Assembly (NCBI GenBank): GCA_027459625.1
Contig: DAIDHP010000002.1
Coordinates: 209,279 to 273,278, forward strand
Source of the DNA: Chthonomonadales bacterium
GTDB taxonomy: Bacteria > Armatimonadota > Chthonomonadetes > Chthonomonadales > CAJBBX01
Reading direction: 5' to 3'
DNA length: 64,000 bases
Under the pieces are notes generated by a model that searched no databases, was not told the DNA's origin, and saw only the letters and a list, made by a program, of their open reading frames with translations. The position numbers and the translations under genes were made by a program. Shown piece by piece: positions 8,733 through 24,970 of this stretch; positions within the stretch are counted from its first letter, which is position 1, and each line of letters starts with the position of its first letter.

Positions 8733-9305
8733 TTAACCGTCCTGTTTTATCTTGGATTTAAGCAGATACGGTTTGCCGGCGGGAACTCGCACGATCGCCT
8801 GCGCCGGACAGACTTCCGCTATGGAGCACTGGTTGCAGTTCAGGCATCGATCATGACGAATCTGCATGAACAGGGAACCGTTTCCAAACGCATCGCATCC
8901 CTTGGAGCATTTCGCGCATCCAATACAGAGGTTTTCATCGATGACATACTGGAAATATGGGTTCTCGACATACGAACGTTGGATCGCGAATGTCGGGCAT
9001 TGCACATTTTCCGCTTCAATGGTATTGCCCACTCTTTCGGGACGCAACATTCCGGAGCACAAATTGCAATACCCGCACATAGCGAAAGCGTGCATGCACT
9101 TGACAGTCGATTGATCCAGAACGCAGGATGTGGCGCACAGTCCGCAATTCGTGCATTTGTAGGGATCGATCTGCCAGACCGTGTCTTCGGCATGGGAACT
9201 GGCGGCAAGGGCGCCGATGGCACCGCTGGCGATAATCAAACCCCCTGTGCGGATCCCGTCCGCGATAAACTCTCGCCTGGTTTTTTTATTTTCGGCGGCT
9301 GCCAT
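8733..9305 (-). CDS. Tat-exported poly-[4Fe-4S] ferredoxin, NapG-like
   Basis: I place the start at the internal ATG at 9305 (MAAAENKKTRREFIADGIRTGGLIIASGAIGALAASSHA), which gives a twin-arginine signal. The longer track ORF (to 9467) would overlap the upstream small ORF by 182 nt. Cys motifs: CTNCGLCATSC, CGYCNLCSG, CIGCAKCSKGC, CLNCNQCSIAEVCP. Confidence 0.7.
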   Translation of the reverse strand: MAAAENKKTRREFIADGIRTGGLIIASGAIGALAASSHAEDTVWQIDPYKCTNCGLCATSCVLDQSTVKCMHAFAMCGYCNLCSGMLRPERVGNTIEAENVQCPTFAIQRSYVENPYFQYVIDENLCIGCAKCSKGCDAFGNGSLFMQIRHDRCLNCNQCSIAEVCPAQAIVRVPAGKPYLLKSKIKQDG

Positions 9306-9516
9306 CTCTTTTGATCCTTTCCGCTTGACGTGTCTCCAAAGCTCGTGGAAGGTCGCAATCGCCGTAATAACCGCACTGCGTGCAGATAGGAAGTTCGGGG
9401 CATCCGCGTGATTTCCGAAGAACCATCGCTCCGATTCCTCCAACCATGGCGGCTGCCATCGTTCCACGTATAATACCCATAAGGAATTCCCGTCTGTTTT
9501 TTACGTTATTTTTCAT
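9286..9516 (-). CDS. small Tat-signal Cys-rich protein (76 aa), function unknown
   Basis: MKNNVKNRREFLMGIIRGTMAAAMVGG is a twin-arginine motif plus hydrophobic region. The mature part carries CPELPICTQCGYYGDC (4 Cys). It overlaps the ferredoxin start by 20 nt, consistent with translational coupling. Confidence 0.45.
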   Translation of the reverse strand: MKNNVKNRREFLMGIIRGTMAAAMVGGIGAMVLRKSRGCPELPICTQCGYYGDCDLPRALETRQAERIKRDGSRRK

Positions 9517-9567: not shown

Positions 9568-10515
9568 TCAATTATCTTTGGCGTATACGTTCAGTTGCTT
9601 TGTGTAATTGTTAGCGATATATACGTTTCCCTCCGCATCGGCTGCAATGGGTATGTCATCGGTGTTTTGCGAAAAAGCCTTAGGACCCAAAATCACGCTA
9701 TCCAATGACCCGTTCGGCTTAAGCACCTTCACCCTTGGCAGCCCTTTTTCCGAAGTTACGATATCGCCGGACGGTAGCAGGGCGATACGAATGGGGTTGC
9801 AGCATCCGCAGAATTTATCAATCGAGTTCCCTCCCCCCCCGAACGATGAAATTAATCTTCCATTCGGAGTGAATGTCTCCACCTTATGGCGTCCGGGATT
9901 GTTTACATACAAGTTGCCATTCCTTTGGATCGCAATGTCCAAGTGTGGGCTGGGTAATATGAACCCTTTTATATCCTTAGCGGGATCTGTGCGCCCAATC
10001 GTTCCAACTATTTTTCCGCGAATATCATATTTCCATACGAGCTTGTTTCCCGCATCCGCTGCATAAATATATGACTTATTCGCAGCAAGGTTTATTATTT
10101 GTGCATTGATCGCAGGCGGACCCCAATTTACGATTTGGTTTGCATATCGCGAGAGAACTTCAATATGATTCCCAACGCCCATATATATTTTATCATCCCG
10201 GAGCGCAACGCACATAGGAGGCTCGGTAGTCGGGATCACACTCGGCTGTTGAGTCTTCCGTGTGAAGATCAGCAGGCCCTTATCGCATGCCGCATATATT
10301 CTTCCCTTCCCATCAACCGTGATATCGTTAACTCCAGAGGATGGCAACGGGTAAGAGGCGACCACCTTCCAGGTGAGCCACTTTGCGGGGACGGTTCTTA
10401 TGGCTTGGAATGCATCCAGAGCGGTGGTTGATTTGGGGGCGATTTTCCATAAGACGATCCCCCACAATCCAAAGAGGACAGCAACTATGCCGAGTAATAT
10501 CAACCGCCATTTCAT
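9568..10515 (-). CDS. membrane-anchored NHL-repeat six-bladed beta-propeller protein
   Basis: N-terminal TM helix MKWRLILLGIVAVLFGLWGIVLW. Repeated blade pattern of the NHL type (GRIYAACDKGLLIF, YIYAADAGNKLVWKYD, GNLYVNNPGRHKVETF, GNVYIANNYTKQLNVY). Unusual CGCCNP motif. Confidence 0.6.
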   Translation of the reverse strand: MKWRLILLGIVAVLFGLWGIVLWKIAPKSTTALDAFQAIRTVPAKWLTWKVVASYPLPSSGVNDITVDGKGRIYAACDKGLLIFTRKTQQPSVIPTTEPPMCVALRDDKIYMGVGNHIEVLSRYANQIVNWGPPAINAQIINLAANKSYIYAADAGNKLVWKYDIRGKIVGTIGRTDPAKDIKGFILPSPHLDIAIQRNGNLYVNNPGRHKVETFTPNGRLISSFGGGGNSIDKFCGCCNPIRIALLPSGDIVTSEKGLPRVKVLKPNGSLDSVILGPKAFSQNTDDIPIAADAEGNVYIANNYTKQLNVYAKDN

Positions 10516-10669: not shown

Positions 10670-12118
10670 TTAGTGTAAGCGCATATCCAAACAGACCATT
10701 CTGTTCAGGTCCCTTGCGATTAGCAAGCCACCCGCGATTGCCATTGGACCCCAGGAATCCGGACCGCTCAAGATTTGAATATCCCCCATTTCGTGATATG
10801 CTGTCGGCGTGGCTTGCACCATTGTGAGCACCCCCGAGTCATTCATGATAAATATCAGTCCGTCGGCTATTAGATATGGTCCAAGCCCGAAACGTCGAGT
10901 GGCTCCGCTGGTCCATTGGGGCTGCCCGTTAAGATTAAGGCACACCAACTCCCCTCCGGATCGCACTCCGTAAATATATCCCTTGTATAAAATTGGTGTT
11001 TGCTGATCCGATCCGAAAACGTCGGGAGTTAATCGATAAAGCGTCTGTACAGAGAATTTGCCACTCTGCTCGGTCATTTGCATCATCGCACTGCCCGCAC
11101 CGTAGCCCCCCGTGAAGAAAATACGTCCATCGGGCAGGCAGATGGGGGTGGGGACGGTGGCTGTGCTCACCTTCCAGTCTGTGGTTTGCCAGAGTATGGA
11201 GCCATCCTTCGCCGAGACGCCAGCCGCGCCGCCGCTGCCGCAATAGACATAAATGGATTGATTGTGGAAGGTGGCTTTCGCTATCGAGGAATGCGTCATC
11301 TGCCACCCCATCGGATTCGGTGTCCGCCAGACGATTTTCCCTGTCGCAAGGTTCACCGCGATCATCAGGACATTTCCCGCTGGAGCGAGGATGACATTAT
11401 TCCCGTCGATCAGAGGGCATTGTCCCGCGTACCATTGCGGAACAGTGGTTCCAAATTGTTTGACCAAGTCCATCTGCCAGTAAATTTTCCCCGTATCGGC
11501 ATCCGCGCATAACACATGACATTGTGGTCCAAGGGAAACCACGTATTTCCCTGAAACCGCCGGAATGGTTCGGCTCATTCCGTGATTGCGCTTGATAGGG
11601 TCGGGGTAGGATTGTCGCCATATCTCCTGACCGTTTGCGAGGGAAAGACACCGAAGGGCATCCTCCTGGTGCGCTTCGTCGTAGTCCAGGACATACACCT
11701 TGCCATGCTCGATTGCCGCCGAGGCGTATCCCTCCCCTAAATTTAGCGACCACAGGAGATGAGGCGGATTTTTTTGCCAGTCAGAGGATAACGCCACTTT
11801 TTCAGGGCTGATATCATCGTGGTTTGGACCGCGAAAGCAGGGCCAGGAGCCTGGCAGGTTCGTAACATTCACTCCGGTGAATTTATAGGATGTTTGCTGA
11901 GTTGGAGCCGTTGTCGCCGTGGCGGACGGCGTCGAGGGTGTGGGAACGGCGGTTTGCATCACGTTTTGGTTTTGAATAGCCTTTGCGGGCCCCACGTTCA
12001 GCGGACGTTCAGGGAAATTGTTTATCCTCCGTTCATGCATCAGAAGCCCCAAAAGTATGGCGACGCAAGTCAGCGTGACGCCTATGGGTATTCCCCAGGA
12101 GATGATCTTATTTTTCAT
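10670..12118 (-). CDS. membrane-anchored PQQ-like (BamB-like) beta-propeller repeat protein
   Basis: N-terminal TM helix and a Thr/Pro/Ser linker. Then WPCFRGPNHDD..., LLWSLNLGEGYASAAIEHGKVYVLD, IWRQS, IYWQMD, IVWRTP, ILWQTT propeller blades. Paralog of 2099-4123. Confidence 0.7.
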   Translation of the reverse strand: MKNKIISWGIPIGVTLTCVAILLGLLMHERRINNFPERPLNVGPAKAIQNQNVMQTAVPTPSTPSATATTAPTQQTSYKFTGVNVTNLPGSWPCFRGPNHDDISPEKVALSSDWQKNPPHLLWSLNLGEGYASAAIEHGKVYVLDYDEAHQEDALRCLSLANGQEIWRQSYPDPIKRNHGMSRTIPAVSGKYVVSLGPQCHVLCADADTGKIYWQMDLVKQFGTTVPQWYAGQCPLIDGNNVILAPAGNVLMIAVNLATGKIVWRTPNPMGWQMTHSSIAKATFHNQSIYVYCGSGGAAGVSAKDGSILWQTTDWKVSTATVPTPICLPDGRIFFTGGYGAGSAMMQMTEQSGKFSVQTLYRLTPDVFGSDQQTPILYKGYIYGVRSGGELVCLNLNGQPQWTSGATRRFGLGPYLIADGLIFIMNDSGVLTMVQATPTAYHEMGDIQILSGPDSWGPMAIAGGLLIARDLNRMVCLDMRLH

Positions 12119-12186
12119 GTATTAGTCGATGTGAAACCTTGGGTGCTTAGGAGATGTTCCACGCTTGGCGAGGGTTCCTATCTTAA

Positions 12187-12195
12187 TGATATAAT
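12187..12195 (+). promoter_or_regulatory. extended -10 promoter element (TGaTATAAT) upstream of the terpenoid-type operon
   Basis: tgatataat at 12187-12195 sits in the 194-nt divergent intergenic region, about 118 nt upstream of the 12313 start. The -35 region (ggcgag at 17-nt spacing) is weak, as is usual for extended -10 promoters. Confidence 0.3.
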
Positions 12196-12312
12196 AAAAG
12201 CAAAGAACAAATTGCCAAAATGATTATTTTGCACTGTAATTACCAGCCTTCCATCGAACCATGTCAATGTTAGGCATGATTCACTGCTCATCATTCAAAG
12301 GACATAAGCGAT

Positions 12313-13140
12313 ATGTCAATTAACATTATACTGTCCAGAAGCGGAGAAGTGGATTCTCTCCCCCAAGAAAATCAACTTATTCGCAAACTTTCGGGACAAT
12401 TCGGAGTGGCGGTTACCGTGACCCCGCATCTGTATCATGTATCCGAAAACGATTCCATTTGGATGGAACTTGCAAAAATGGAGGGGGATATCGTATTCAT
12501 CTCCTGGTTGCATCCCCGCCCTGCGGAGTGGTTGCTGCGTAAACATAACGTGGGGGAACAAGCTCTGATCTGCTATCATTTCTCGGATATCCCATCCGAT
12601 CCGGCATGGAGTGTCCTCCCCGAGGCAAACTCCGCTGCGCTCGCCAAGCCTAAAGTGTTGCAAACCCAGCAACTTGTTCGATGGTATCCGGTCGTGGACA
12701 GGTCGAGATGCACCAACTGCCTGAACTGCCTTCAGTTTTGCCTGTTCGGAGTTCACGAAACGGACGAAAACGGCGAGGTCAAAGTTGCAAACCCGGATCA
12801 GTGCAAGCAGGGGTGTCCTGCGTGCAGTCGTATCTGTCCGAATGGGGCGATTATCTTTCCTCTCTATGCAAAGGATCCTTCAATTGCCGGGGCTCCAGGA
12901 TTGGTAATGCAACCGGACAAACAAGCCAGGCATATGTATTACACCAGAACGAAAGCCAAATGTCCAAAATGCGGACAGGAGGGTTCGTTCCTAATCCCTT
13001 CCCCGGGCGCTCCAACTTGCGAGGAGTGCACCAGACCTATTCGCATCAGTAAGCCTGAACCCTCAACGTCAAATATCGTGATGGACGAGATGGACGAATT
13101 GATAGACCAAGTGGATTCAAAATACGGGAGACGCAATTGA
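12313..13140 (+). CDS. 2x[4Fe-4S] ferredoxin-domain protein with unknown N-terminal domain and C-terminal zinc-ribbon
   Basis: CTNCLNCLQFC (CxxCxxCxxxC) and CKQGCPACSRICP motifs. C-terminal CPKCG...(15 aa)...CEEC. The N-terminal ~130 aa (…DIVFISWLHPRPAEWLLRKHNV…) has no motif I can assign. Its stop overlaps the next gene's TTG start. Confidence 0.7.
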   Translation: MSINIILSRSGEVDSLPQENQLIRKLSGQFGVAVTVTPHLYHVSENDSIWMELAKMEGDIVFISWLHPRPAEWLLRKHNVGEQALICYHFSDIPSDPAWSVLPEANSAALAKPKVLQTQQLVRWYPVVDRSRCTNCLNCLQFCLFGVHETDENGEVKVANPDQCKQGCPACSRICPNGAIIFPLYAKDPSIAGAPGLVMQPDKQARHMYYTRTKAKCPKCGQEGSFLIPSPGAPTCEECTRPIRISKPEPSTSNIVMDEMDELIDQVDSKYGRRN

Positions 13141-14711
13141 GTGGAAAGGGCAGCAGAATCCTGCTAACCGCGGATCGCACACTTATAGCCGATTACGATC
13201 TGCTTTTCGACGGAATGCTAGCGGCCAGTCAAACCACTACCACACCCTCATTTTTGATGAAGCACCTCCTGATGAAACGCCCGCGCTCGGCAGGCGGCGC
13301 TGCGAAGTTTGCACCCCTTGGACTTAGGCGAATTGAGGCGGCTCTTCTCTCGGATGGATTTACCGAGGGGGAAGTGGTGGTTGCCGATCCGGATTCGCTC
13401 TCGGATTTCGTTGGGAAGGATACAGCCATTATTGCCGTCTCCTCCGGCGAACCTGCCGGATTTGGCATGAATAGCACCACCATGTGCGGTATTGCCGGAG
13501 GCTCCATTTACCCTTACCGAATGTTTCGCCAATTGATGGGGAATATTCGTCGATTGAAGGATGCGTATCCCCATGTGAAAGTGGTGCTTGGAGGTCCCGG
13601 AGCTTGGCAGATGCGAGAGAAAATACGCTCCCGGGAGCTTCCCATTGACTATCTTGTCACGGGTTACGCCGAGGGGAACGTATCCTCCATCTTTCATAGG
13701 ATTCTTTCCGGAGACGAAATCCCGACCATTATCGATGGGGAATCGGTTTCCGCAGAACAAATTCCTACCATACGGCGCCCTAGCACCATGGGGGTGGTGG
13801 AGATAAGCCGAGGATGCGGTTTGGGATGCGCTTTTTGCACCATCCGGAAAACCGCGATGATTCATTTGCCTCATGAGACGATTATCAAGGATGTGCGTAC
13901 GAACGTGGAGATGGGAAAGCCCAATATCGCCATCCTTAGCGAAGATTTTTTCCGTTACGGTGCAAACGGTATGCAAGTGAATCCGGATAGTCCCATACGC
14001 CTCTTGGAAAACGTTAGAGAGGTGGAGGGGTTAAAGCTGATCCAACTCGATCATTGCAATGTGCTGAGCGTGTCCCAGTATTCCGATGACCATTTGCGGC
14101 AAATACGCCGGTTGCTAACGCAGGGGCAGCGGCATGAATACCCTTGGGTGAATATCGGCGTTGAAACCGCCAGTGGAACGCTATTAAGGAATAACGGGGG
14201 CGGAGCCAAGATGGGGCGAGGGGGAGCAGACGCTTGGGACGAATTTTCCGAGAATCAAGTGCGCAGGCTGGTACGCGCAGGATTCTTTCCTCTGGTAAGT
14301 CTTATCATTGGTTTGCCTTACGAGACGGAACACGATATCCAAATGACGATGGAATGGGTGGAGCGTCTTTCGAATGAGCGTGTCACGGTGTTTCCGGTTC
14401 TTTACGCCCCCGTGGATGGCTCACGACCTCCGAACCCGAATGATCTCCGTCGCTCTCATTGGGATTTAATTAAGCGTTGCTACGATTTGAATTTTTATTG
14501 GACTCCCAAAATGTACTGGGACAATCAGTCCGGAGCAGGCGTCGGTTTGGGCAAGAGATTGCTCATGCAAGGAATGGGTAGAGGCCAGGTGCTTGAGTGG
14601 AGCCTTTTACTCAGTATGAGGAGGTTACGCTCGCCGAAAAGCTTTGCAAATCGGGTCGCATCCAATGAGAAGGAATCCGAAGATGCACCGATGGGAAAAT
14701 CATGTCATTGA
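13137..14711 (+). CDS. B12-binding-domain radical SAM protein
   Basis: Radical-SAM cluster motif EISRGCGLGCAFCTIRK (CxxxCxxC) lies behind an N-terminal Rossmann-like domain (AIIAVSSGEP...VKVVLGGPGAW), as in class B radical-SAM enzymes. Overlaps its neighbours by 4 nt and 10 nt. Confidence 0.8.
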   Translation: MSGKGSRILLTADRTLIADYDLLFDGMLAASQTTTTPSFLMKHLLMKRPRSAGGAAKFAPLGLRRIEAALLSDGFTEGEVVVADPDSLSDFVGKDTAIIAVSSGEPAGFGMNSTTMCGIAGGSIYPYRMFRQLMGNIRRLKDAYPHVKVVLGGPGAWQMREKIRSRELPIDYLVTGYAEGNVSSIFHRILSGDEIPTIIDGESVSAEQIPTIRRPSTMGVVEISRGCGLGCAFCTIRKTAMIHLPHETIIKDVRTNVEMGKPNIAILSEDFFRYGANGMQVNPDSPIRLLENVREVEGLKLIQLDHCNVLSVSQYSDDHLRQIRRLLTQGQRHEYPWVNIGVETASGTLLRNNGGGAKMGRGGADAWDEFSENQVRRLVRAGFFPLVSLIIGLPYETEHDIQMTMEWVERLSNERVTVFPVLYAPVDGSRPPNPNDLRRSHWDLIKRCYDLNFYWTPKMYWDNQSGAGVGLGKRLLMQGMGRGQVLEWSLLLSMRRLRSPKSFANRVASNEKESEDAPMGKSCH

Positions 14712-16465
14712 GCTCCATGTCGAACCCTGAGATAGATGAAGCGATGGTTCAGTTGAAGAGCATCCTTGCCGAGGAGATTATTGATGGTTCCCATTGGGAG
14801 GGACATTTATCCGCGTCAGCCTTATCCAATGCAACCGCTCTTTCCGCTCTCTCCTTTTCAAACGCCCCCGAGGATGGACAAAGTTTGAATGCAGGTTTGG
14901 AATGGCTCTTTGACCATCAGAATCAGGATGGGGGATGGGGGGATACGACCGATAGTCCCTCCAATCTCTCCACCACTCTGCTCGTGAACGCCGCATTTCG
15001 TCTTAATGAAAAAAGATTGACGGAATTGAAACAACTAACCGTTGACAGTGCATTGCAGGGGATGAATGCGTGGTTGAAAAAGGCTTTGGCTAACCATAAC
15101 GGTGATGTCGCAAAGGGCGTTCGGGAGTTATATGGAGAGGATCGAACCTTTTCAGCGCCGATACTGATGAACTGCGCTCTTGCGGGGTTGGTGGATTGGA
15201 GGTGCTTGCCGGATTTGCCTTACGAGTTGGCGGCAGCACCGCAGGGTTTGTTTAAATTCCTGAAACTAGGGGTGGTTAGTTACGCTCTCCCAGCATTGAT
15301 CGCCATCGGAATGTTGGTGGAACAAAGAAAACCCACTGCGAATCCGCTTGCAGGAGCTTTGCGGCAGGTGTGCATTCCGAAGGTTATGGAGAAATTGCAG
15401 GAGATTCAGCCCGCCCATGGTGGTTTTCTTGATGCTACTCCCTTAACCTCCTTTGTCGCGATGGCTTTGGCAAATCGTTTCGACCCTCAGCATCCCGTAA
15501 CTCAAAAGTGTTTCGCTTTTCTTCGTTGGTCCATGCGTTCGGATGGAAGTTGGCCCATAGATACGAACCTCTCCGTTTGGATCACCTCCCATATTTTCGG
15601 CCTGTTCGAATGGATCGGATTTCCCTCGGATATCCATCCACTCCAAATCAAGGAATGGCTATATGGACGGCAACAACTCGTCCGTCATCCCTACACGGGA
15701 GCGGATCCGGGCGGTTGGGGATGGAATCATCATCCGGGTAGTGTTCCCGACGCTGACGACACATCTGCTGTGCTAATAGCGCTCTATCGTCTTCAAGGAG
15801 AGGCGAGGGAATGGAATGGGTTGAAATGGTTGTTGCGTCTTCAAAATGATGATGGCGGATGGCCGACCTTTTGCAAAGGCTGGAGCGGATTGCCTTTCGA
15901 CCGAAGTTGTCCGGATATCACCGCTCACGCCTTGCGAGCCATCTCCCCGTATGCCAAGGTGGCGTCCAATATGAATGTGTCAAAAAGCATTCGAAAAGGT
16001 TTGGAATGGCTTAAGAAGAATCAATGCGAGGATGGCTCCTGGGTTCCATTATGGTTCGGTAATCAGTACGCCCCGCATGGCGAAAACAGAGTGGTGGGGG
16101 CGAGCCGAGTTCTATTGGCGCTGGGGGAGTTGAATGAACAGCAGGCGGAGAGCGAAAAAGGGGTTCATTATCTTCTGAATGTTCAAAACGATGATGGAGG
16201 ATGGGGCGGCGGAAAAGGAATATCCTCCACCATGGAGGAGACTTCGTTATCCGTGATCGCTCTTTTGGCGTGCGGCCATATTCATGAGGCGGAGAGAGGT
16301 GTTGAGTTTTTGCTGAGAGGATGCCTTAGTCGTGCTTACGAAAATCCTGCACCAATAGGCCTCTATTTCACAAGCCTTTGGTATTCCGAAAAGCTGTATC
16401 CGATTATTTGGACTTTGGAAGCTTTGGGGCGGTTCAAACTGCAAAAAAAAATGATCCATGGCTGA
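14702..16465 (+). CDS. class II terpene cyclase (squalene-hopene cyclase / prenyltransferase alpha-alpha toroid family)
   Basis: Five QW-type repeats (QNQDGGWGD, MRSDGSWP, LQNDDGGWPT, NQCEDGSWVP, VQNDDGGWGGG). DxDD catalytic-acid motif in GSVPDADDTSAVLIALYRL. 587 aa. Confidence 0.75.
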   Translation: MSLSSMSNPEIDEAMVQLKSILAEEIIDGSHWEGHLSASALSNATALSALSFSNAPEDGQSLNAGLEWLFDHQNQDGGWGDTTDSPSNLSTTLLVNAAFRLNEKRLTELKQLTVDSALQGMNAWLKKALANHNGDVAKGVRELYGEDRTFSAPILMNCALAGLVDWRCLPDLPYELAAAPQGLFKFLKLGVVSYALPALIAIGMLVEQRKPTANPLAGALRQVCIPKVMEKLQEIQPAHGGFLDATPLTSFVAMALANRFDPQHPVTQKCFAFLRWSMRSDGSWPIDTNLSVWITSHIFGLFEWIGFPSDIHPLQIKEWLYGRQQLVRHPYTGADPGGWGWNHHPGSVPDADDTSAVLIALYRLQGEAREWNGLKWLLRLQNDDGGWPTFCKGWSGLPFDRSCPDITAHALRAISPYAKVASNMNVSKSIRKGLEWLKKNQCEDGSWVPLWFGNQYAPHGENRVVGASRVLLALGELNEQQAESEKGVHYLLNVQNDDGGWGGGKGISSTMEETSLSVIALLACGHIHEAERGVEFLLRGCLSRAYENPAPIGLYFTSLWYSEKLYPIIWTLEALGRFKLQKKMIHG

Positions 16466-16510
16466 GGGTGGATATTTCAAGCGTCAGTTTTAGCGTATTT
16501 GTGATACCTG

Positions 16511-16519
16511 TGTTATAAT
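16511..16519 (+). promoter_or_regulatory. possible internal extended -10 promoter (TGtTATAAT)
   Basis: tgttataat at 16511-16519 in the 83-nt gap between the cyclase and the DUF116/polyprenyl-synthase-like gene. No good -35. Confidence 0.25.
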
Positions 16520-16548
16520 GAAAAAAACAATTAGCCGCTCCACCGTAA

Positions 16549-18273
16549 GTGGCGCAAAGAGATACTGTTATTTCCATGATTTTCAAACCTTCCGGCGAAT
16601 CCACCATCAAACCATCGGATATTAAACAGGTGCCTCAGAACGCAGAAGTGCGTTCCGCAATTCGTGCGGAATCGCTTCGGATCGCCTCCGCCTCCTTCAC
16701 AAACTCCCCGCCGGATCGAACCGAGTTGGAGTTCCACGGGATTCATCTCTTATCCTCCATGCAGGAGAGGCTGGAATACCTCGGCTTTGCCATGGTTGAG
16801 CTAAGCAACGCCTTTTGGAAGTGCCGCTACGCTGCGACGCCATTTAATCGCCGTTTGCTGCTGCTGCCGCATTGTCTAAGAGATCAGAGAGCGTGCAGAG
16901 GGACCTATGATTCCGTTGGGTTGAACTGCGCGGGATGCGGTGCATGTGACATCCATTCTCTCAAAAGCAGGGCGGATGAGCTTGGATATCAGGTGATTAT
17001 CGCCGAAGGCACAACCTCGGTCATTATGAAGGTGCTCGACAATGAGGCTGATGCCATTCTTGGCGTTGCCTGCCTCGATTCCCTTGAGAAATCCTATGAA
17101 CGCGTATCGAATTTGGGGGTTCCCATGGTGGCGGTCCCTCTCTTACGCGACGGTTGCAAGGACACCGAGGCGGAAATATCTCTTGTCAAACGCGTTATGG
17201 AACTTCGAACCGAGGATCGTCAACAGGATTATCTGTCATACGTTCCTATGCTAAGACACACCCGATCTCTCTTTTCCAGCCGCAATTTGGAAAGGTACCT
17301 CGCTTCGGTTTTTGATCGCTCCCACGACGGCGGATTCTCGACCGAAACGGATCGTATCTCGTATGAATGGATATTGGAGGGGGGCAAGAGATTCCGACCG
17401 TTCATCACCCTTGCGGCGTATGGGGTGGCCAAGCATGGCGATATCGTCATGGAGGAGGGGGCGAATTTGGAATCCCTCATCCCGGATTCCGTTCGACATA
17501 TCGCCATCGCCATCGAATGTCTGCACAAGGCGTCCCTGGTGCATGATGATATTGAGGACGATGATAATTGGCGTTACGGGGATGACACACTGCATCATCG
17601 TTACGGAGTGGCGACGGCTCTCAATGTCGGTGATTTTCTCATTGGATTGGGCTATCTTCTTGTGTCACGGCAAGTCAGCGACATAGGAGCGGATGTTACT
17701 TCCGACATTCTCGCGCATCTTGGTGCGGCTCACCTGAACCTCTGTCGCGGACAAGGGGCGGAATTGATGAGCGTTTCCAATGGCTCTGATAACCTGAAAC
17801 CGTTGGATGTGTTATCCATCTATGCGCAAAAGACCTCCCAGGCTTTTGAGGCGGCGTTATTCGCCGGCTTAAGGTCTGCAGGATACCAAATGGATAAGGA
17901 ACCGCTATCCCGTTTTTGCTCCTATATGGGTCAAGGTTACCAGATCGTAAACGATCTGGATGACTGGAGCGAATCCGAGGAGAACAAGGTTCATATGGGG
18001 CAGGATTTTCTTTCCGGCCGCCCTACCATCCTTCGAGCGTTTGCATCCGAAAATGGCTCCGACGTTCCCACTGCCCAAGATGTGCAATCCGGGATGGTTT
18101 CCATCCAGGAAGTCAGGGAGCGATACGAAAGCATGGGCGCTTTCACAAAAGCGGATGCGTTAGTTGACCGGCTGAAGTTGCGATGTCTCACCATCGCGGA
18201 CCAGATAGAGAAGAAACCCATCGGGAATTTGCTCCGGTTTTTGGTGAATACAATCCTTGCGCATACGGACTAA
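16549..18273 (+). CDS. fusion protein: DUF116-like Cys-rich domain + trans-isoprenyl diphosphate synthase-like domain with atypical motifs
   Basis: N-terminal part has RRLLLLPHCLRDQRACRG...LNCAGCGACDIHS...VIIAEGTTSVIM, a DUF116-type pattern. C-terminal part has CLHKASLVHDDIEDDDNWRYGD (first Asp-rich motif) and GQGYQIVNDLDDWSE (second motif, first Asp replaced by Asn). The start could instead be the ATG at 16576. Confidence 0.7.
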   Translation: MAQRDTVISMIFKPSGESTIKPSDIKQVPQNAEVRSAIRAESLRIASASFTNSPPDRTELEFHGIHLLSSMQERLEYLGFAMVELSNAFWKCRYAATPFNRRLLLLPHCLRDQRACRGTYDSVGLNCAGCGACDIHSLKSRADELGYQVIIAEGTTSVIMKVLDNEADAILGVACLDSLEKSYERVSNLGVPMVAVPLLRDGCKDTEAEISLVKRVMELRTEDRQQDYLSYVPMLRHTRSLFSSRNLERYLASVFDRSHDGGFSTETDRISYEWILEGGKRFRPFITLAAYGVAKHGDIVMEEGANLESLIPDSVRHIAIAIECLHKASLVHDDIEDDDNWRYGDDTLHHRYGVATALNVGDFLIGLGYLLVSRQVSDIGADVTSDILAHLGAAHLNLCRGQGAELMSVSNGSDNLKPLDVLSIYAQKTSQAFEAALFAGLRSAGYQMDKEPLSRFCSYMGQGYQIVNDLDDWSESEENKVHMGQDFLSGRPTILRAFASENGSDVPTAQDVQSGMVSIQEVRERYESMGAFTKADALVDRLKLRCLTIADQIEKKPIGNLLRFLVNTILAHTD

Positions 18274-18301
18274 GGCGATCGGATAGCGTCTTGAACGGAG
18301 G

Positions 18302-19591
18302 ATGGTAATGAGGATTGTCCATTTAGCGGCGGGCGCCGGAGGCATGTATTGCGGGGCTTGCGCGCGTGATATCTCCTTGGCAAATGGTCTGATCGCTCAA
18401 GGGGATGAAGTTATTATCCTTCCCCTTTACACTCCTCTTCGCGTGGATTCCGACCTTGTTGAGACGTTTCCTCAAACCAAAATCTTTCTTGGCGGCATTA
18501 ACTCCTGGCTGCAGCAAAATATCCCTTTTTTTCGCAAAACGCCGGTATGGATGGATAGTCTGTTGGATAACCCCAATCTTCTCCTTTGGGCGAGCAAATT
18601 CGCTGTGAGTGTGAAAGCCGAGGAGTTGGGACCCATGACTCACTCCGTGCTGCTTGGGAGAAGCGGTTTTCAACGCAAGGAGATGGATAAACTTCTCGCA
18701 CATATGGATACCCTGCAGCCGTTTGATCTGGTAAGCATCACGAACACACTTCTCTCAGCCATGGCGCCTGAAATTAGAAATAGATACGAAATCCCCGTGG
18801 TCTGCGCCTTTCAAGGCGAGGATGGTTTCGTGGAGGCGTTTCCTGAGGAGTGGAGATCAGAGGTTTGGCGTCAGATGCAGGAGAACGTACGCGCCGTGGA
18901 CTGTTTCATCTCTCCTAGTCACGATGCGACGGAACGCATGGCGGCGTATCTTCGATTGCCTTGTGAGAAGATACATGAAATACCGACCGGCATTGATTTG
19001 ACAAGATATGAAAGCGTCGTCAACAGAAACAGAGAACCATTCACCATCGGGTATGTATCCGCGATCACGCATGGGAAAGGGTTGGATGTTTTGGCTGAGG
19101 CGCTGAGGATTCTCACTAATCGCGGAACGGGTAGGGTATGTTTACTTGTAGCGGGGAAAGTGATGGATCCCAAATATTGGATGCAGGTGCAAACCTCAAT
19201 CTCCCAGTGCGTGAATATTGAATTCAAGTATCTTGGGGAGATAGATTTCGCGGAAAAAACGCGGATGCTACGCTCCTGCAGCGCATTTTCGGTTCCGAGT
19301 GGAATACCCGAAGTCAGAAGTATGGCGATGATGGAGGCAATGGCTTGCGGCGTCCCTGTCATAGCCCCCAACCATGGAGTCTTTCCGGAACTAATCGGTA
19401 TGACTTCCGGCGGGGCGTTGTTCGATAAAAACAAGCCGGAGGAGTTTGCGCTTATTTTAAAAGATTGGATGGATAATCCCGAGAAAGCGGACGCATACGG
19501 CAAATCGGCTCGGGAAGGCATCGCCAAACACTATCGAATTGAGGATATGATCCGTCAAACACGGGAATTATACGGGGAAATCGCCGGATAA
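18302..19591 (+). CDS. GT-B fold glycosyltransferase, family 4-like
   Basis: C-terminal GT1/GT4 signature ...SVPSGIPEVRSMAMMEAMACGVPVIAPNHGVFPELI (E-x7-E region). N-terminus MRIVHLAAGAGGMYCGACARD. The ATG at 18308 has better spacing to GGAGG and may be the true start. Confidence 0.75.
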   Translation: MVMRIVHLAAGAGGMYCGACARDISLANGLIAQGDEVIILPLYTPLRVDSDLVETFPQTKIFLGGINSWLQQNIPFFRKTPVWMDSLLDNPNLLLWASKFAVSVKAEELGPMTHSVLLGRSGFQRKEMDKLLAHMDTLQPFDLVSITNTLLSAMAPEIRNRYEIPVVCAFQGEDGFVEAFPEEWRSEVWRQMQENVRAVDCFISPSHDATERMAAYLRLPCEKIHEIPTGIDLTRYESVVNRNREPFTIGYVSAITHGKGLDVLAEALRILTNRGTGRVCLLVAGKVMDPKYWMQVQTSISQCVNIEFKYLGEIDFAEKTRMLRSCSAFSVPSGIPEVRSMAMMEAMACGVPVIAPNHGVFPELIGMTSGGALFDKNKPEEFALILKDWMDNPEKADAYGKSAREGIAKHYRIEDMIRQTRELYGEIAG

Positions 19592-19617
19592 TTCAGAAAT
19601 CCTTCCTAAGGAGATTT

Positions 19618-20250
19618 TCAGGGATTTGAGGCGCCCCGCACGGCGGATCGCACCATCTCCAGAAATAGCTCATGCACCCTCGTATCCGAAGTTAATTCCG
19701 GATGAAAAGCGGTGGCGAGCATGTTCTTTTCGCGTATCCCCACGATTTTATCCTGATATTTTGCGAGGATTTCCACTTCTCCCCAGGTTTTAGTGACGTA
19801 GGGGGCGCGAATGAAAACCCCTTCCACCGGATCCCCCTCCAAAGACGCGAAGGGTATCTGAGCCTCGAAGCTGTCCACCTGTCTTCCGAAGGCGTTTCTT
19901 GCGACGGAGATATTCGTCACGCCAAGACGGGTTTGCTCGCTCCCCGCTATCTCCTTCGCCATCAGAATCATTCCCGCGCATGTGCCGTATAGAGGCATGC
20001 CGTCCTGCACTTTATGAATAAGAGGGTCTATGATGTCGTGCTTGACAAGCAGCTTTCCTATTGTCGTGCTCTCCCCGCCAGGTATGATCATGCCGTCGCA
20101 CATATGCAACTCCTCCACCGAGCGAACCAATAAAGTCGCCGCCCCGCCACTATGAGATAGCATTTTTTTGTGCGCTTCGTAATCCCCTTGAAGAGCTAAA
20201 ATCCCGATTGTGATTTCCTTGTCAGTTTGCATAAGTGTCATATCCCTCAA
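19618..20250 (-). CDS. pdxT: pyridoxal 5'-phosphate synthase glutaminase subunit PdxT
   Basis: ITIGILALQGDYEAHKKML..., GMIIPGGESTT, YGTCAGMILMA (catalytic Cys) and ATAFHPELT are PdxT/class I glutamine amidotransferase motifs. The likely true start is the third ATG, at 20232, which has GAGGGA 10 nt upstream. Confidence 0.85.
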   Translation of the reverse strand: MRDMTLMQTDKEITIGILALQGDYEAHKKMLSHSGGAATLLVRSVEELHMCDGMIIPGGESTTIGKLLVKHDIIDPLIHKVQDGMPLYGTCAGMILMAKEIAGSEQTRLGVTNISVARNAFGRQVDSFEAQIPFASLEGDPVEGVFIRAPYVTKTWGEVEILAKYQDKIVGIREKNMLATAFHPELTSDTRVHELFLEMVRSAVRGASNP

Positions 20251-20349
20251 GATTGGTGCGTTAATATTTCTTACGATAGTTTCAAACGCTGAAGTCCTCC
20301 AATCCGCTTTTAATGTTGGAATGGATACGCACCTATCAATTCCGAAAAA

Positions 20350-22062
20350 TCATTGATTTGACGATGTCGATTTTGTTCCCGTCGGCAAAAGATTGAAGAT
20401 GACATCCAGTCCTTCGTATCGCGTATGGTACGCCAGTCCGACCTCCATGCAATCAAATCGCTTCTTGATTCCCAATATTGTATCAAAAGCCCGCCATCTC
20501 TGCACGTCGTATCTCACACCGAAATTGTATCCCCAATGCGCCGCAAGGCAGCCGTAATTGAAGTCCACCTCGTGGGGCACATCCTTATGGTCGAATAGAA
20601 ATGGGGTCTTGCCGAAATCCTGTTGCAGACGGTAGGAGGCGGAAAGCAGTGTGTTCGGTCGAACCACCCAATCCATCTCCGCCTCTGGAGAGAAGAGCGT
20701 GTAATTGGTGTGCGTTTTGGTGTAGTAAGACGAGTGCAGCGTCATGCCATATCGAATATAAAACGGGTTGGCGAGAACATAAAGAGGCGAGGATATATCC
20801 AACCCCTCCGAAAACCTTCCAGAGGTTACATGATCCGGCTGTTCGCGGAAATAACCCCCGTTGACATCCGCGCTTACGATCCATTCCGCAGGATTTAAAA
20901 AGGATGTTCCGAAGACGGAATGCGTCTCCTCGCTGAAGTTTGGATCAGTTGGATTCACCTGACGGCTATTAAGGATATTACTAAAATGCACCCCAATGTC
21001 CGGTAACCGATCCACTTGTATGTTCGTGCGTTCCCTGTTATCCACAAAAGTTCCCTTCGTGATTAAACCGTACAACGTGGTGCGATGAAGAAACAATGTG
21101 GGGCTTGGCGCATTGATGTTCATCATTGGCAGCGGCTGCAGAGCGCTTCCTAACGGTTGAGACGCTCTGAACGCTTGTCCTGAAGGGGGGTACGCTCCGG
21201 TAGGCACATGTGCGATATCCTGCGCGAAAGAGATGATCCCCTGCGGAGACTGCTTGGCGGCTATATTAATATTGTAGAACATCGAGCGATTGGTGTCCGT
21301 GAACACATCGCCCGCCAGGGGAAATGCGAGACCGTTTTGCTTGGAATACCCGGGAATTGGAATTGGGTTCTGCACTCCAGGTCCGAATGTTTTCTCCAAG
21401 GACGGAAGCGAGATGATGCGGCTAGGTCCCAGCCAAAATGTGATTCCTTTTCCCACAACCTTGCCATTCGGGTACACCCTTACCTCCTTGGCGGTGATAT
21501 GGTAGTCCGGATGTTTCAGCCTGCATGTGGTGAAGGTGGCGTCCTTGGCCAAGAGGATGTTTCCAGGTAAAAGCTGGATGATTTTTCCCTTGAGAAAGAT
21601 GTTATAAGCATCGGTTTTGGCGTTATGGATAATCCCGGTATGATCCATGGGATTGAAAGTCATATCCTCCCCGGTGAGATCGCCTTCGGGTCTGGTTAAT
21701 GTAAGATGACCTTTGACCGTGATTGTTTGGGATGCGGATCCCTCCACGTTATCCGCCAAAATGATGGTTTTCTCTCCCGTATCGGGGTCAATCAGGATAA
21801 TTCGCACAGGGCTGTTTGATTGGAAGTAGTTGGTTTCTGGTTGCCATGATAATTGCTTGAACTGATCGATGATCACATCCGGCGGTTTTGAGTTAAGTTT
21901 GATCTTTCCGGCTGCGAATGCGGTTGCGGATGCAATCATGAAAGCGATAGCAAATGTGAGAGGGTGGATTCGATGACGAATCGAGGGGGATCGCTTGATA
22001 TGCGGATTTGAGTAGGTGATGCGTTGATTGTTTGTCATCCCGAGGCGGTTCCCTCTTGCCAA
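20350..22062 (-). CDS. lptD: LptD/OstA-like outer-membrane LPS-assembly protein
   Basis: Signal-like N-terminus (LTFAIAFMIASATAFAAG). OstA-N-like beta-jellyroll (ILADNVEGSASQTITVKGHLTLTRPEGDLTGEDMTF). LptD-like ATFTTCRLKHPDYHITAKEVRVYPNGKVVGKGITFWLGPSRIISLP. Aromatic-rich beta-barrel C-terminal half. Confidence 0.6.
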   Translation of the reverse strand: MARGNRLGMTNNQRITYSNPHIKRSPSIRHRIHPLTFAIAFMIASATAFAAGKIKLNSKPPDVIIDQFKQLSWQPETNYFQSNSPVRIILIDPDTGEKTIILADNVEGSASQTITVKGHLTLTRPEGDLTGEDMTFNPMDHTGIIHNAKTDAYNIFLKGKIIQLLPGNILLAKDATFTTCRLKHPDYHITAKEVRVYPNGKVVGKGITFWLGPSRIISLPSLEKTFGPGVQNPIPIPGYSKQNGLAFPLAGDVFTDTNRSMFYNINIAAKQSPQGIISFAQDIAHVPTGAYPPSGQAFRASQPLGSALQPLPMMNINAPSPTLFLHRTTLYGLITKGTFVDNRERTNIQVDRLPDIGVHFSNILNSRQVNPTDPNFSEETHSVFGTSFLNPAEWIVSADVNGGYFREQPDHVTSGRFSEGLDISSPLYVLANPFYIRYGMTLHSSYYTKTHTNYTLFSPEAEMDWVVRPNTLLSASYRLQQDFGKTPFLFDHKDVPHEVDFNYGCLAAHWGYNFGVRYDVQRWRAFDTILGIKKRFDCMEVGLAYHTRYEGLDVIFNLLPTGTKSTSSNQ

Positions 22063-22240: not shown

Positions 22241-22957
22241 CTATAAAAAAGCTCTCGGTGCGCCGTGGATGCAAAGGATGTCAAATATCACGGATATCCC
22301 CCAATGAATCCAAAAGCCTGGCAGAAACGATTTGCCGCGGAGGGCAAGCCAACCCATCGCAATTCCCGCGATGAAGGACCCGAGAAACTCCGGAATCGGT
22401 TTGGTCCAGTGAAGAGCGCAAAAGGCGATGGATGGCAATATGACCGCCGTAATCGATCCAAGGCGTTTTTCCAAGCCGAAGGTGAGAAACCCTCTGAAGA
22501 AAAACTCCCAGCAGAAAAGATAAAAGCCGTATGTAATCTCAAAGTAGAGGAAATAACGCGCCGAATAGATCGCCTCTTTTTGGATGGGATAGTAAGTGCG
22601 AAAGGCTGGAAATCTGGATGCGATGATGAGAATCGGCAGCATGAACAGAAAAAACCAGAGGGCGATTTTCACCGCATCATTTTGCGGGCGTATCAAACCA
22701 TAGGACTGCGGATTTTCCCTGAAAAGGGTGAATATGATTAACATGGGAATGAAAATCAAGCAGGTGATGTTGACAAGCAGGTATTCATTCCAGGTGTAGG
22801 GCGGCGCATATGTACCGGCATATGCCAAACTCAAACCGGAAAGGTTGTAATGAAACAGGAACAACACGATGACAGCGCCAGTTACCAGTGTTATCAGGGA
22901 GATTACCAGCGCCTTGCGTAGATTTGGCTTCGGTTTTACAACCGCCCTTTTTTTCAT
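22241..22957 (-). CDS. CPBP family intramembrane glutamic endopeptidase (CAAX protease-like)
   Basis: Polytopic membrane protein with the EExxxR-type motif CWEFFFRGFL, plus the downstream FCALHW and HWGISVIFD His motifs. Confidence 0.75.
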   Translation of the reverse strand: MKKRAVVKPKPNLRKALVISLITLVTGAVIVLFLFHYNLSGLSLAYAGTYAPPYTWNEYLLVNITCLIFIPMLIIFTLFRENPQSYGLIRPQNDAVKIALWFFLFMLPILIIASRFPAFRTYYPIQKEAIYSARYFLYFEITYGFYLFCWEFFFRGFLTFGLEKRLGSITAVILPSIAFCALHWTKPIPEFLGSFIAGIAMGWLALRGKSFLPGFWIHWGISVIFDILCIHGAPRAFL

Positions 22958-24347: not shown

Positions 24348-24970
24348 ATGGCGTTCATCTGCGAACGCGTCTCTATTTTCACGTGATCGTCCGCAAAGAG
24401 AGTGTTATAGCGCATATCGTTCAATGCGGAGCCTCCATGCCAGTTTCCTGAGGCGTCCATTAACAGGTTCGCCTCGGACGGGGTGTTCAGGGAATCTTCG
24501 CTCATATGTCGAAACGATATCTCCGTTCGATAGTTGTAACTCGTGCCGAATTTGGCGTAGCTTGTGGGGGTGGCGTCCAAAGGGATTCCGGTGAAATCCT
24601 CCACGGTATATCCTGTGTCCGAAGGGCAATGATAAACCTCCGGGTCCTTGACATAGGGCAATAAAACGGTTTGGATAAGCGGCATGTTAGGGATTTCCGC
24701 TTGAAAAGCGGGATAGGAGTTCCATATCTGCGGGGTGTATTTATCCGTGGGGTCCACCGCCCACGGAAAGTATCCATCGTAATCCTGGGCGTACATAGTG
24801 AAAGCGTAACCTATTTGGCGCAAGTTTGAAACGCAAACAATCTGCCTCGCCTTCGCTCTCGCGGCTGCGAAGACAGGGAATAGTATCGCTGCGAGCAGAG
24901 CGATAATGGCTATCACCACAAGTAATTCGATTAATGTAAAGGCGGTTTTTTTACGCATCTGCCGCGGCAT
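24329..24970 (-). CDS. prepilin-type N-terminal cleavage/methylation domain protein (pseudopilin, DUF1559-like)
   Basis: N-terminus MPRQMRKKTAFTLIELLVVIAIIALLAAILFPVFAAARAKAR. C-terminal ...WHGGSALNDMRYNTLFADDHV resembles the H-x9-DG tail of this family. Confidence 0.8.
   Translation of the reverse strand: MPRQMRKKTAFTLIELLVVIAIIALLAAILFPVFAAARAKARQIVCVSNLRQIGYAFTMYAQDYDGYFPWAVDPTDKYTPQIWNSYPAFQAEIPNMPLIQTVLLPYVKDPEVYHCPSDTGYTVEDFTGIPLDATPTSYAKFGTSYNYRTEISFRHMSEDSLNTPSEANLLMDASGNWHGGSALNDMRYNTLFADDHVKIETRSQMNAIWNTPL

Follow-up and report, generated by a model that had tools for sequence, protein, structure and literature searches.

What does a Chthonomonadales bacterium make with five tightly packed genes that set an iron-sulfur protein and a radical S-adenosylmethionine (radical-SAM) enzyme beside terpenoid enzymes? 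The genes lie on the plus strand of a 64,000-nucleotide stretch of contig DAIDHP010000002.1 (assembly GCA_027459625.1, phylum Armatimonadota), which we refer to as the window, and a sequence-only reading had proposed that they direct the synthesis of a cyclic isoprenoid glycolipid. We found that they encode a ferredoxin-like protein (12313-13140), a radical-SAM enzyme (13137-14711), a predicted terpenoid cyclase related to squalene-hopene cyclase (SHC; 14702-16465), a fusion of DUF116 to an isoprenyl diphosphate synthase (IDS)-like domain (16549-18273), and a GT4 glycosyltransferase (18302-19591). The locus is probably an Armatimonadota-type extended version of a widespread terpenoid cassette, with a cyclic isoprenoid lipid as its probable product. 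In the model that we favor, and hold with a little more belief than doubt, the fusion would make a non-squalene polyprenyl chain and the SHC-like cyclase would cyclize it, accompanied by an iron-sulfur-dependent step, radical-SAM tailoring, and probable glycosylation.

A conserved cassette with a two-gene core

We compared loci drawn as a similarity-ranked sample seeded on the fusion, with 85 loci in the tblastn map. The cyclase gene lay directly 5' of the fusion gene in 54 of the 66 loci with enough flank, and this pair is the invariant core of the cassette. Both proteins have thousands of homologs. Among named homologs, those at ~50% identity are mostly from Armatimonadota. Relatives of the fusion were found in at least 586 species genomes when one genome per species was scanned. 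Among the matches listed, most fusion-bearing genomes were Planctomycetota, including the cultured Schlesneria sp. T3-172 and Thalassoglobus neptunius, together with Armatimonadia and a few other labels.

Of the 56 loci whose upstream flank reached at least 6 kb, 15 had the radical-SAM gene, each time together with the ferredoxin-like gene. The full order of ferredoxin-like protein, radical-SAM enzyme, cyclase, fusion, and GT4 recurred in distant metagenomic genomes, in seven loci (L001, L003, L005, L009, L015, L085, and L086) at 40-60% identity, and all three loci seeded independently on radical-SAM homologs belong to this cluster. The sequence-only reading had held that its proposal would fall if the five genes did not co-occur in related genomes. 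Because the five-gene order recurs in distant genomes, this objection does not apply, and the five genes form a conserved unit, more than would be expected by chance.

Gene spacing in the window was as that reading had described it. The listing of open reading frames (ORFs) returned all five coordinates exactly, and inspection of the junctions bore out overlaps of 4 and 10 nt and gaps of 83 nt (cyclase to fusion) and 28 nt (fusion to GT4). The TGA stop of the ferredoxin-like gene (13138-13140) overlaps the TTG start of the radical-SAM gene at 13137 as TTGA, and a Shine-Dalgarno-like GGGAG lies 8 nt 5' of that start. The radical-SAM stop (14709-14711) overlaps the cyclase gene by 10 nt if the ATG at 14702 is the start; an alternative ATG at 14717 would remove the overlap. 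Pfam recovered every domain that had been named, with Fer4 and B12-binding scoring below their gathering scores.

The suggestion that this is not a described cluster stood in part. Both the SHC-like clade (PMC7306690 and PMC12414744) and the fusion of DUF116 to a polyprenyl synthetase (PMC5898192) have been noted in the literature. The Armatimonadota-type extension, comprising the radical-SAM enzyme, a zinc-ribbon form of the ferredoxin-like protein, GT4, and a NuoEF/NapGH/propeller module, was not found described in the literature searched.

An SHC-like cyclase with retained catalytic residues

The cyclase gene (14702-16465, plus strand) encodes a protein with two alpha/alpha-toroid domains, in the beta-gamma arrangement, matching SQHop_cyclase_N (60.7 bits) and SQHop_cyclase_C (112.3 bits). 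The DxDD motif noticed earlier is a single DADD at residue 350. QW repeats are present as claimed, but a strict pattern counted four (residues 73, 381, 441, and 495) and not five, and the further candidate copies are degenerate.

Scores against family models placed this protein at a distance from characterized cyclases. It reached 113.1 bits against the canonical SHC model TIGR01507 (cut-off 431.1) and 57 bits against TIGR03463 (cut-off 851). Its closest solved relative was the SHC of A. acidocaldarius at just 72 bits, followed by drimenyl diphosphate synthase and ent-copalyl diphosphate synthase. By these comparisons, the window cyclase is neither a canonical SHC nor an oxidosqualene cyclase (OSC), in agreement with the earlier expectation of a cyclase outside canonical SHC that nonetheless keeps its DxDD.

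Alignment to the SHC structure 1gsz showed that DADD corresponds to D374/D376/D377 and the histidine of a DITAH motif to H451, so that both the general acid and its histidine partner are found in the window cyclase. Three further SHC residues were kept (W489, F601, and Y612), and four active-site residues were altered (F365W, F605W, Y495H, and Y609E). Homologs shared this pattern, with PDxDDT in 112 and DxTAH in 118 out of 120. We therefore predict a proton-initiated class II terpenoid cyclase.

The window cyclase is 38-48% identical to cyclases from Planctomycetota loci, including those of the cultured Schlesneria and Thalassoglobus. Santana-Molina et al. 2020 (PMC7306690) describe planctomycete SHC-like proteins that keep the catalytic residues in a gene context suggesting a non-squalene precursor. 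McShea et al. 2025 (PMC12414744) present the SHC-like clade as functionally and structurally undetermined and as sister to epoxy-polyprenyl cyclases. Matched by these descriptors, namely a position outside SHC and OSC, retained catalytic residues, and a non-squalene context, the window cyclase would fit this clade.

The gene content of the window points the same way. Pfam searches of all other large window ORFs returned no squalene/phytoene synthase, HpnH/HpnG, class I terpene synthase, or P450, and the absences listed in the sequence-only reading, which also included HpnCDE, hold within the 64-kb window. The window contains neither hopanoid nor squalene genes. The most reasonable reading, as first suggested, is a dedicated cyclic isoprenoid not derived from squalene.

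We also considered whether the cyclase in a Kuenenia metagenome-assembled genome (MAG; L084) is that organism's real SHC, fed by the fusion. The L084 cyclase scored 67 bits against TIGR01507 (the Schlesneria cyclase of L043 scored 108 bits; cut-off 431). It is thus non-canonical, and therefore no link to hopanoid squalene could be drawn.

A DUF116-synthase fusion with substituted motifs

The second core gene (16549-18273, plus strand) joins DUF116 (PF01976, 117.5 bits, cut-off 25) to a trans-IDS-like domain (polyprenyl_synt, PF00348, 124.4 bits, cut-off 27), which confirms the fusion of a cysteine-bearing DUF116-like domain to an isoprenyl diphosphate synthase fold that had been read from the sequence. 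The DUF116 domain has seven invariant cysteines in alignment A2: C109, C116, C127, C130, and C133 (the last three as CxxCxxC), C175, and C203. Its sequence had no match in the PDB even at E = 10. A confident structural model (predicted local distance difference test [pLDDT] 86.6) returned nothing below E = 0.01 in Foldseek, with only a vague resemblance to flavodoxin, B12-domain, and CheY folds. The flavodoxin-like resemblance agrees with Makarova et al. 2015 (PMC5898192), whose prediction for DUF116 was a flavodoxin-like domain that transfers electrons and who also recorded the joining of DUF116 to a polyprenyl synthetase in Pirellula.

The IDS-like domain combines intact and substituted motifs. 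The first aspartate-rich motif (FARM) is DDIED, with HDDIED in 112 out of 120 homologs, and the motif that binds isopentenyl diphosphate, GGKRxRPF, is intact (GGKRxRP in 118 out of 120). The second aspartate-rich motif (SARM) is NDLDD, and NDLxDW replaces the expected DDxxD in 116 out of 120 homologs and 83 out of 87 loci. RYG is found where RRG is expected after the FARM. All NCBIfam synthase equivalogs scored far below their cut-offs. The closest PDB relative was a hexaprenyl diphosphate synthase (4jxy, 76 bits), with octaprenyl and geranylgeranyl diphosphate synthases also among the best. Small residues (Ala and Ser) occupy positions -5 and -4 ahead of the FARM, as in long-chain synthases, which suggests that the polyprenyl substrate is probably C20 or longer. 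The sequence-only reading began its pathway with chain synthesis. The intact FARM and GGKRxRPF are consistent with that step, but the family-wide NDxxD and RYG substitutions leave it an assumption, so simple chain elongation by the fusion is plausible but not assured.

These substitutions raise the possibility that the IDS-like domain is an irregular (non-head-to-tail) coupling or ionizing enzyme, with DUF116 and the ferredoxin-like protein giving electrons for a reductive step. Such a squalene-synthase-like or reductive route on an IDS scaffold would deliver a hydrocarbon to be folded by the cyclase. An Asp-to-Asn change in the SARM is reported for chrysanthemyl diphosphate synthase, an irregular coupling enzyme derived from farnesyl diphosphate synthase (bioRxiv 10.1101/169417), but the analogy comes from one plant enzyme family, and in the window protein GGKRxRPF and the FARM are intact. 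Electron supply would give a role to the redox domain fused in every member and to the ferredoxin-like gene often adjacent, since plain elongation needs no electrons. In addition, one Bipolaricaulota isolate has a stand-alone DUF116 whose neighbors are IspH, SHC, HpnH, and a polyprenyl synthetase. However, the head-to-head enzymes known so far come from another family, SQS_PSY. PMC7306690 bears on both sides: anammox and some other SHC-bearing groups are without any known squalene synthase family there, but HpnCDE is also reported in Planctomycetes. The Kuenenia MAG has the core pair, but the non-canonical score of the Kuenenia cyclase beside the fusion means that a link to hopanoid squalene is not shown. 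We consider irregular coupling unlikely, though still a serious competitor to synthesis of a regular polyprenyl chain by the fusion.

We note that the 83-nt gap upstream of the fusion contains a perfect extended -10-like element, TGtTATAAT (16511-16519), 30 nt 5' of the GTG start. It could be an internal promoter of the fusion gene, and a generic promoter scan missed it because it has no -35 match.

The ferredoxin-like protein and the radical-SAM enzyme

The ferredoxin-like protein (12313-13140, plus strand) consists of a conserved N-terminal domain of ~90 amino acids, a 2x[4Fe-4S] dicluster, a CPKC...CEEC zinc ribbon, and an acidic C-terminal helix. The two ferredoxin cysteine motifs and the zinc ribbon seen earlier were all found (CTNC, CPAC, CPKC, and CEEC). 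In Pfam, Fer4_10 matched at 25.1 bits and the Fer4 dicluster was weak, just under its gathering score. Eight cluster cysteines were invariant in alignment A4 (C133, C136, C139, C143, C164, C168, C171, and C175).

The zinc ribbon was restricted to the subset of loci containing the radical-SAM gene, and the ferredoxin-like protein itself was not. Its signature occurred 5' of the cyclase in at least 13 loci without the radical-SAM gene, including those of the cultured Schlesneria (L043) and the Kuenenia MAG (L084), and was directly adjacent in nine, ~1.5 kb before the DxDD. The gene therefore belongs with the cyclase and fusion and is not merely a reductant of the radical-SAM enzyme, the role suggested earlier; by synteny, it appears tied to the core pair at least as strongly as to the radical-SAM enzyme.

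The radical-SAM enzyme (13137-14711, plus strand) has an N-terminal Rossmann-like, B12-binding-like domain and a single Fe-S site. Its motif CGLGCAFC begins at residue 227 and contains the CxxxCxxC cysteines C227, C231, and C234, which are invariant in 51 sequences (alignment A3). The family has only 629 detectable homologs. Pfam gave 47.8 bits for Radical_SAM and 24.8 bits for B12-binding, below the cut-off of 32.1, and no NCBIfam family matched at threshold. Foldseek searches with a confident AlphaFold2 (AF2) model (pLDDT 92) gave MgmA as the best match (E 1.5e-17), followed by MiaB, AprD4, TsrM, CysS, TokK, and RimO, with TM-scores of ~0.5 and 14-17% identity to the class B methylase structures. 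The enzyme does have a Rossmann-plus-barrel architecture. The model is matched equally well by the cobalamin methylases and by AprD4 and MiaB/RimO, which use no cobalamin, so the enzyme is only a candidate cobalamin-dependent class B enzyme. The B12-type radical-SAM assignment made earlier thus holds for the CGLGCAFC motif and the Rossmann-like domain, but not yet for the cofactor.

Assignment as a MiaB/RimO methylthiotransferase was considered and rejected. The three N-terminal auxiliary-cluster cysteines are not present, and the score against TIGR00089 was 72.9 bits (cut-off 251). Alignment A3 contained no invariant cysteine beyond the radical-SAM motif, and an auxiliary cluster of the MiaB type is thereby ruled out.

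A frequent but not constant glycosyltransferase

The last gene (18302-19591, plus strand) encodes a GT4 glycosyltransferase of the GT-B fold, as had been read from the sequence, with both Pfam domains over cut-off (Glycos_transf_1 88.3 bits, Glyco_transf_4 47.7 bits). All NCBIfam equivalogs were far under their cut-offs, and PDB matches were weak and generic. Orthologs at 41-47% identity lie 3' of the operon in L001, L003, L005, L009, L010, L015, L085, and L086. Overall, GT4 was found within 5.5 kb in 15 out of 49 loci. It is therefore a frequent neighbor but not a constant one, and the glycolipid proposed by the sequence-only reading is the weakest link of that proposal.

Some relatives carry other genes in its place. 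In L004 (9410-13470), an ABC ATPase and a 1,118-amino-acid FtsX-type permease replace GT4 beside the operon, and in L087 (4093-6685), Wzm/Wzt-like ABC genes and GT2 genes do so. These transporter genes hint at export of the product or a glycoconjugate.

An associated redox and propeller module

Genes divergent from the operon, all on the minus strand, are separated from it by a 194-nt AT-rich intergenic region (12119-12312, GC 0.39), which we presume to be the promoter region for both gene sets. Nearest to the operon is a PQQ_2/BamB-like beta-propeller protein with an N-terminal membrane anchor (10670-12118, PQQ_2 96.6 bits), which is 47-59% identical in L001, L003, L005, L009, L013, L015, and L023. 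In L005, L013, and L088, the operon itself includes a paralogous PQQ_2 gene, placed between cyclase and fusion. The next gene (9568-10515) encodes an NHL/SGL-type beta-propeller with weak Pfam SGL/NHL matches, a weak ScyF-like match (50 bits), and an N-terminal hydrophobic segment that would be a membrane anchor or signal.

Two further genes resemble NapGH in architecture only, as a multi-transmembrane polyferredoxin and a ferredoxin with a Tat-like signal. The NapG-like periplasmic ferredoxin (8733-9305, Pfam Fer4 families) likely starts at Met55 of a 244-amino-acid ORF (MAAAENKKTRREFI, Tat-like signal), and its homologs in L001, L085, L086, and L088 are 183-220 amino acids long. There was no NCBIfam match to a NapG model, and the score for the NapGH-type quinol dehydrogenase family was not reached. 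The NapH/MauN-like membrane polyferredoxin (7433-8725) has two Fer4_5 domains (60 bits), one Fer4 domain, and ~6 transmembrane-like segments, scored 52.9 bits against napH_ (cut-off 213), and is syntenic in L001, L003, L005, L015, L085, L086, and L088. Beyond these lie a second PQQ_2/BamB-like beta-propeller with three N-terminal transmembrane-like segments (2099-4123, PQQ_2 89.5 bits) and a NuoE+NuoF-like fusion (1-2085) with thioredoxin-like 2Fe-2S, FMN/NADH-binding 51K, and SLBB domains. This NuoEF-like gene is a 695-codon frame that runs past the window start (2Fe-2S_thioredx 159, Complex1_51K 142, and nuoF_fam 368 bits) and is a candidate for NADH-linked electron input. Homologs of the propeller (660-683 amino acids) and of the NuoEF-like protein (790-791 amino acids) are syntenic in L001, L003, L086, and L088, and in these four loci the whole divergent set flanks the operon in the same order.

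Among 33 fully flanked loci, the NapG-like gene was present in five out of nine loci with the radical-SAM gene and the NHL gene in six out of nine, compared with none of the 24 loci without it. This restriction links both genes to the radical-SAM variant beyond adjacency. In its radical-SAM-containing version, the conserved unit thus exceeds five genes and includes the divergent Fe-S and propeller genes. The sequence-only reading had treated these as a divergently transcribed cluster next to the operon; the divergence stood, and the cluster is more than a neighbor.

Relatives usually have a sixth operon gene after the fusion, encoding a single-toroid Prenyltrans protein of 302-333 amino acids with repeated DGGF motifs (L001 13502-14425, L003 13436-14359, L004 8475-9395, L043 11742-12743, and others). 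In loci with the full five-gene order, it usually precedes GT4. It was not present in the window or in the 90%-identical L085, and since L085 also lacks it, its absence is a real lineage trait. We rejected the 307-amino-acid Prenyltrans protein as a second cyclase, as it has no DxDD and its gene is not found in the window or L085.

The conservation of the divergent genes also allows a view in which a redox/envelope system is central, the isoprenoid is an accessory cofactor, anchor, or carrier and not a bulk lipid of the membrane, and the toroid proteins are perhaps non-catalytic binders. Where the radical-SAM gene is present, conservation of the redox and propeller genes equals that of the biosynthetic genes, and PQQ_2 genes alternate with those of the operon. 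The 307-amino-acid Prenyltrans partner of relatives has no DxDD. In other systems, NapGH-type modules take electrons from quinol and deliver them to enzymes of the periplasm, which include beta-propellers such as NosZ. However, the cyclase and fusion occur as a pair without redox or propeller genes in most Planctomycetota loci (all 24 fully flanked loci lacking the radical-SAM gene), the strong conservation of the cyclase DxDD and histidine argues for catalysis, and the scores behind the NapH-like and BamB-like assignments fall far short of the family cut-offs. A central redox/envelope system is, in our judgment, decidedly improbable.

Side features of this region include a 1,015-amino-acid secreted GH42-like/CBM_4_9 protein (4288-7335, minus strand) between the NapH-like and PQQ_2 genes. 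This insertion is shared by L085 but is not in L001, L003, L086, or L088, and is probably unrelated cargo. The full NapG-like ORF spans 8733-9467 (minus strand). L002, L085, L086, and L088 have a separate conserved ORF of 71-76 amino acids, Pfam-negative, between the NapG-like and NHL genes, and the N-terminal extension of the window ORF may be that small gene in another frame.

A proposed route to a cyclic isoprenoid lipid

Returning to the model of a non-squalene chain that is cyclized and tailored, we propose the following steps. The IDS-like domain would supply a dedicated non-squalene polyprenyl substrate, whose terminal double bond the cyclase would protonate through the central Asp of DADD, with the conserved histidine assisting, so that the chain folds to a polycycle. 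Either the prenyl substrate or the product may undergo a redox step that DUF116 and the frequently co-encoded 2x[4Fe-4S] protein carry out or assist. In this lineage, the dedicated radical-SAM enzyme would tailor the skeleton by methylation or another radical C-H functionalization; its fold class includes lipid- and peptide-modifying C-methylases, which favors this step. GT4 would probably add a sugar to give a membrane or envelope lipid. The NuoEF-like, NapH/NapG-like, and propeller proteins could form an associated redox/envelope module that either reduces the Fe-S enzymes of the cytoplasm or works on the lipid once it has left that compartment. What the analysis establishes is gene content, motifs, synteny, family sizes, and fold classes; the substrate, its chain length, each chemical step, cobalamin use, glycosylation of the terpenoid, and the part played by the divergent module are deduced from these.

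Several points weigh against this model. No product, substrate, or activity is established for any family member. Two catalytic positions of the IDS-like domain differ from those of working elongation enzymes (Asn in place of Asp1 of the SARM, and RYG in place of RRG), and metal binding by DUF116 is inferred from its cysteines alone, its model having no significant structural relative. No ferredoxin-like gene was detected beside the cyclase in ~20 Planctomycetaceae, Gemmataceae, and Pirellulaceae loci. Two thirds of loci have no GT4, and some relatives have GT2/ABC transporter genes or no glycosyltransferase. Because the loci were seeded on the fusion and ranked by similarity, the frequencies are conditional on its presence. 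The operon boundaries are based on spacing and synteny; promoter and terminator scans over 11900-20400 returned chance-level matches and were uninformative.

An ordinary hopanoid locus, with a divergent functional SHC, a radical-SAM enzyme like HpnP, HpnR, HpnH, or HpnJ, and an HpnI-like glycosyltransferase, is scarcely credible: radical-SAM enzymes and a glycosyltransferase do take part in hopanoid synthesis (PMC13459092), homologs are annotated as "squalene--hopene cyclase" in some databases, and an SHC is the best solved relative with its DxDD aligned, but the TIGR01507 score and altered active-site residues speak against it, as do an HpnJ score of 17.6 bits (cut-off 577.6), the lack of matches to HpnH, HpnG, HpnP, and HpnR, the absence of HpnCDE/Sqs from the window, a constant neighbor that is polyprenyl-synthase-like and not a squalene synthesis gene, and the placement of such proteins outside SHC in PMC7306690 and PMC12414744.

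A bolder form of our model is a redox-assisted route to polycyclic terpenoids from a regular or otherwise non-squalene chain, with DUF116 as a new Fe-S domain acting on prenyl diphosphates. We regard this as speculative and would advance it only with considerable doubt. If true, the SHC-like enzyme would be the first known alkene-protonating cyclase of such chains across Planctomycetota and Armatimonadota.

Cyclic terpenoids are membrane regulators and a source of molecular fossils. Among such fossils, the tricyclic terpanes are generally regarded in geochemistry as being of uncertain origin. If the products of this cassette were cyclized regular polyprenoids of the tricyclohexaprenol type, the abundant environmental bacteria that carry it would be a biological source for orphan sedimentary biomarkers such as tricyclic terpanes, whose origin is still described as uncertain (PMC12980184). 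Two evolutionary studies flag the SHC-like clade with an unassigned substrate and product, and comparison of this locus with its relatives shows which genes accompany the cyclase: the DUF116/synthase fusion with its unusual motif, the Fe-S protein, and, in one lineage, the radical-SAM enzyme, glycosyltransferase, and redox/propeller module. The gene set would turn an orphan clade into a concrete, testable pathway and give a first functional handle on DUF116. Planctomycetes that can be cultured and genetically manipulated carry the core pair, so the question is open to direct attack.

Relation to characterized systems

The SHC-like clade described in PMC7306690 and PMC12414744 shares with the window a divergent SHC homolog, retained catalytic residues, and, in Planctomycetes, a non-squalene gene context. 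These papers list the PVC and FCB groups, Spirochaetota, and Acidobacteriota but not Armatimonadota, and their main text does not describe radical-SAM, GT4, ferredoxin-like, NuoEF/NapGH, or propeller genes. The hpn pathway has in common a two-domain class II cyclase with QW repeats, DxDD, and the H451 partner, and offers a precedent for radical-SAM and glycosyltransferase tailoring (HpnP, HpnR, HpnH, HpnJ, and HpnI). In contrast, the window cyclase is below the SHC cut-off with changed active-site aromatics, its neighbor resembles a head-to-tail synthase, HpnCDE/Sqs and HpnH/HpnG are not in the window, and the radical-SAM enzyme is not an ortholog of any Hpn enzyme.

The closest characterized analogues appear similar in their working but use different enzymes. 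In the Bacillus sporulenol pathway (HepS/HepT, YtpB, and SqhC), as outlined in PMC7306690, a dedicated polyprenyl diphosphate synthase provides the non-squalene, head-to-tail substrate of a class II cyclase from the SHC family, much as we propose here. Unlike that pathway, the window locus has no YtpB-type synthase, its cyclase belongs to a different clade, its synthase is DUF116-fused with NDxxD, and it has additional Fe-S, radical-SAM, and glycosyltransferase genes. The epoxy-polyprenyl cyclases (Lon15, AtoE, Bra4, and PlaT2), which PMC12414744 places as sister to the SHC-like clade, act on all-head-to-tail prenyl chains. They open an oxygenase-made epoxide, whereas the window locus has no oxygenase and keeps the alkene-protonating DxDD, and they differ in lineage and products, occurring in Actinomycetes and making meroterpenoids. 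Gromomycin of Streptomyces (PMC12105684) is a squalene-independent triterpenoid from regular hexaprenyl diphosphate made by a cluster-encoded synthase, but GroF is not SHC-type, the pathway employs Rieske oxygenases together with a P450 and has a guanidine head group, and the compound is an antibiotic of a few strains compared with the phylum-wide cassette here. The class B methylases MgmA, TsrM, CysS, and TokK share the N-terminal Rossmann-like domain and radical-SAM barrel, and differ from the window enzyme in its B12-binding score below the Pfam cut-off and in its low structural and sequence similarity to them.

Other features of the window

Scans for Rfam families and tRNAs found nothing in the window. 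At its far edge (63305-64000, minus strand), we found the C-terminal part of 1-deoxy-D-xylulose-5-phosphate synthase (DXS; TIGR00204, 236 bits), cut by the window end. DXS shows that the organism possesses the methylerythritol phosphate pathway for isoprenoid precursors. Given the 44 kb between this gene and the operon, no linkage is implied. An Rce1-like protease (22241-22957) was considered as a prenyl-related partner and rejected, as it is syntenic only in the closest relative, L085. Between it and the operon, a 570-amino-acid protein with an N-terminal hydrophobic segment (20350-22062, minus strand) is Pfam-negative and occupies the same position in L085 (562 amino acids).

Further along, a protein at 24329-24970 (minus strand) has a prepilin-type N-terminal methylation motif and a DUF1559 domain. 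Proteins of this kind are expanded in Planctomycetota and allied phyla. A 2,038-amino-acid hybrid sensor kinase (55741-63308, plus strand) contains GAF, many PAS, HisKA/HATPase, two receiver, and Hpt domains, and is followed by a response-regulator/PAS/GGDEF diguanylate cyclase whose gene overlaps the kinase stop codon. The region from 28830 to 50342 is a dense glycoside-hydrolase block with GH78-like and GH106 rhamnosidases, a melibiase, a GH63/MGH1-like protein with PA14, a DUF2961 protein, a WbsX-like protein with a carbohydrate-binding module, and a BD-FAE esterase, which suggests a lifestyle of degrading plant or algal polysaccharides.

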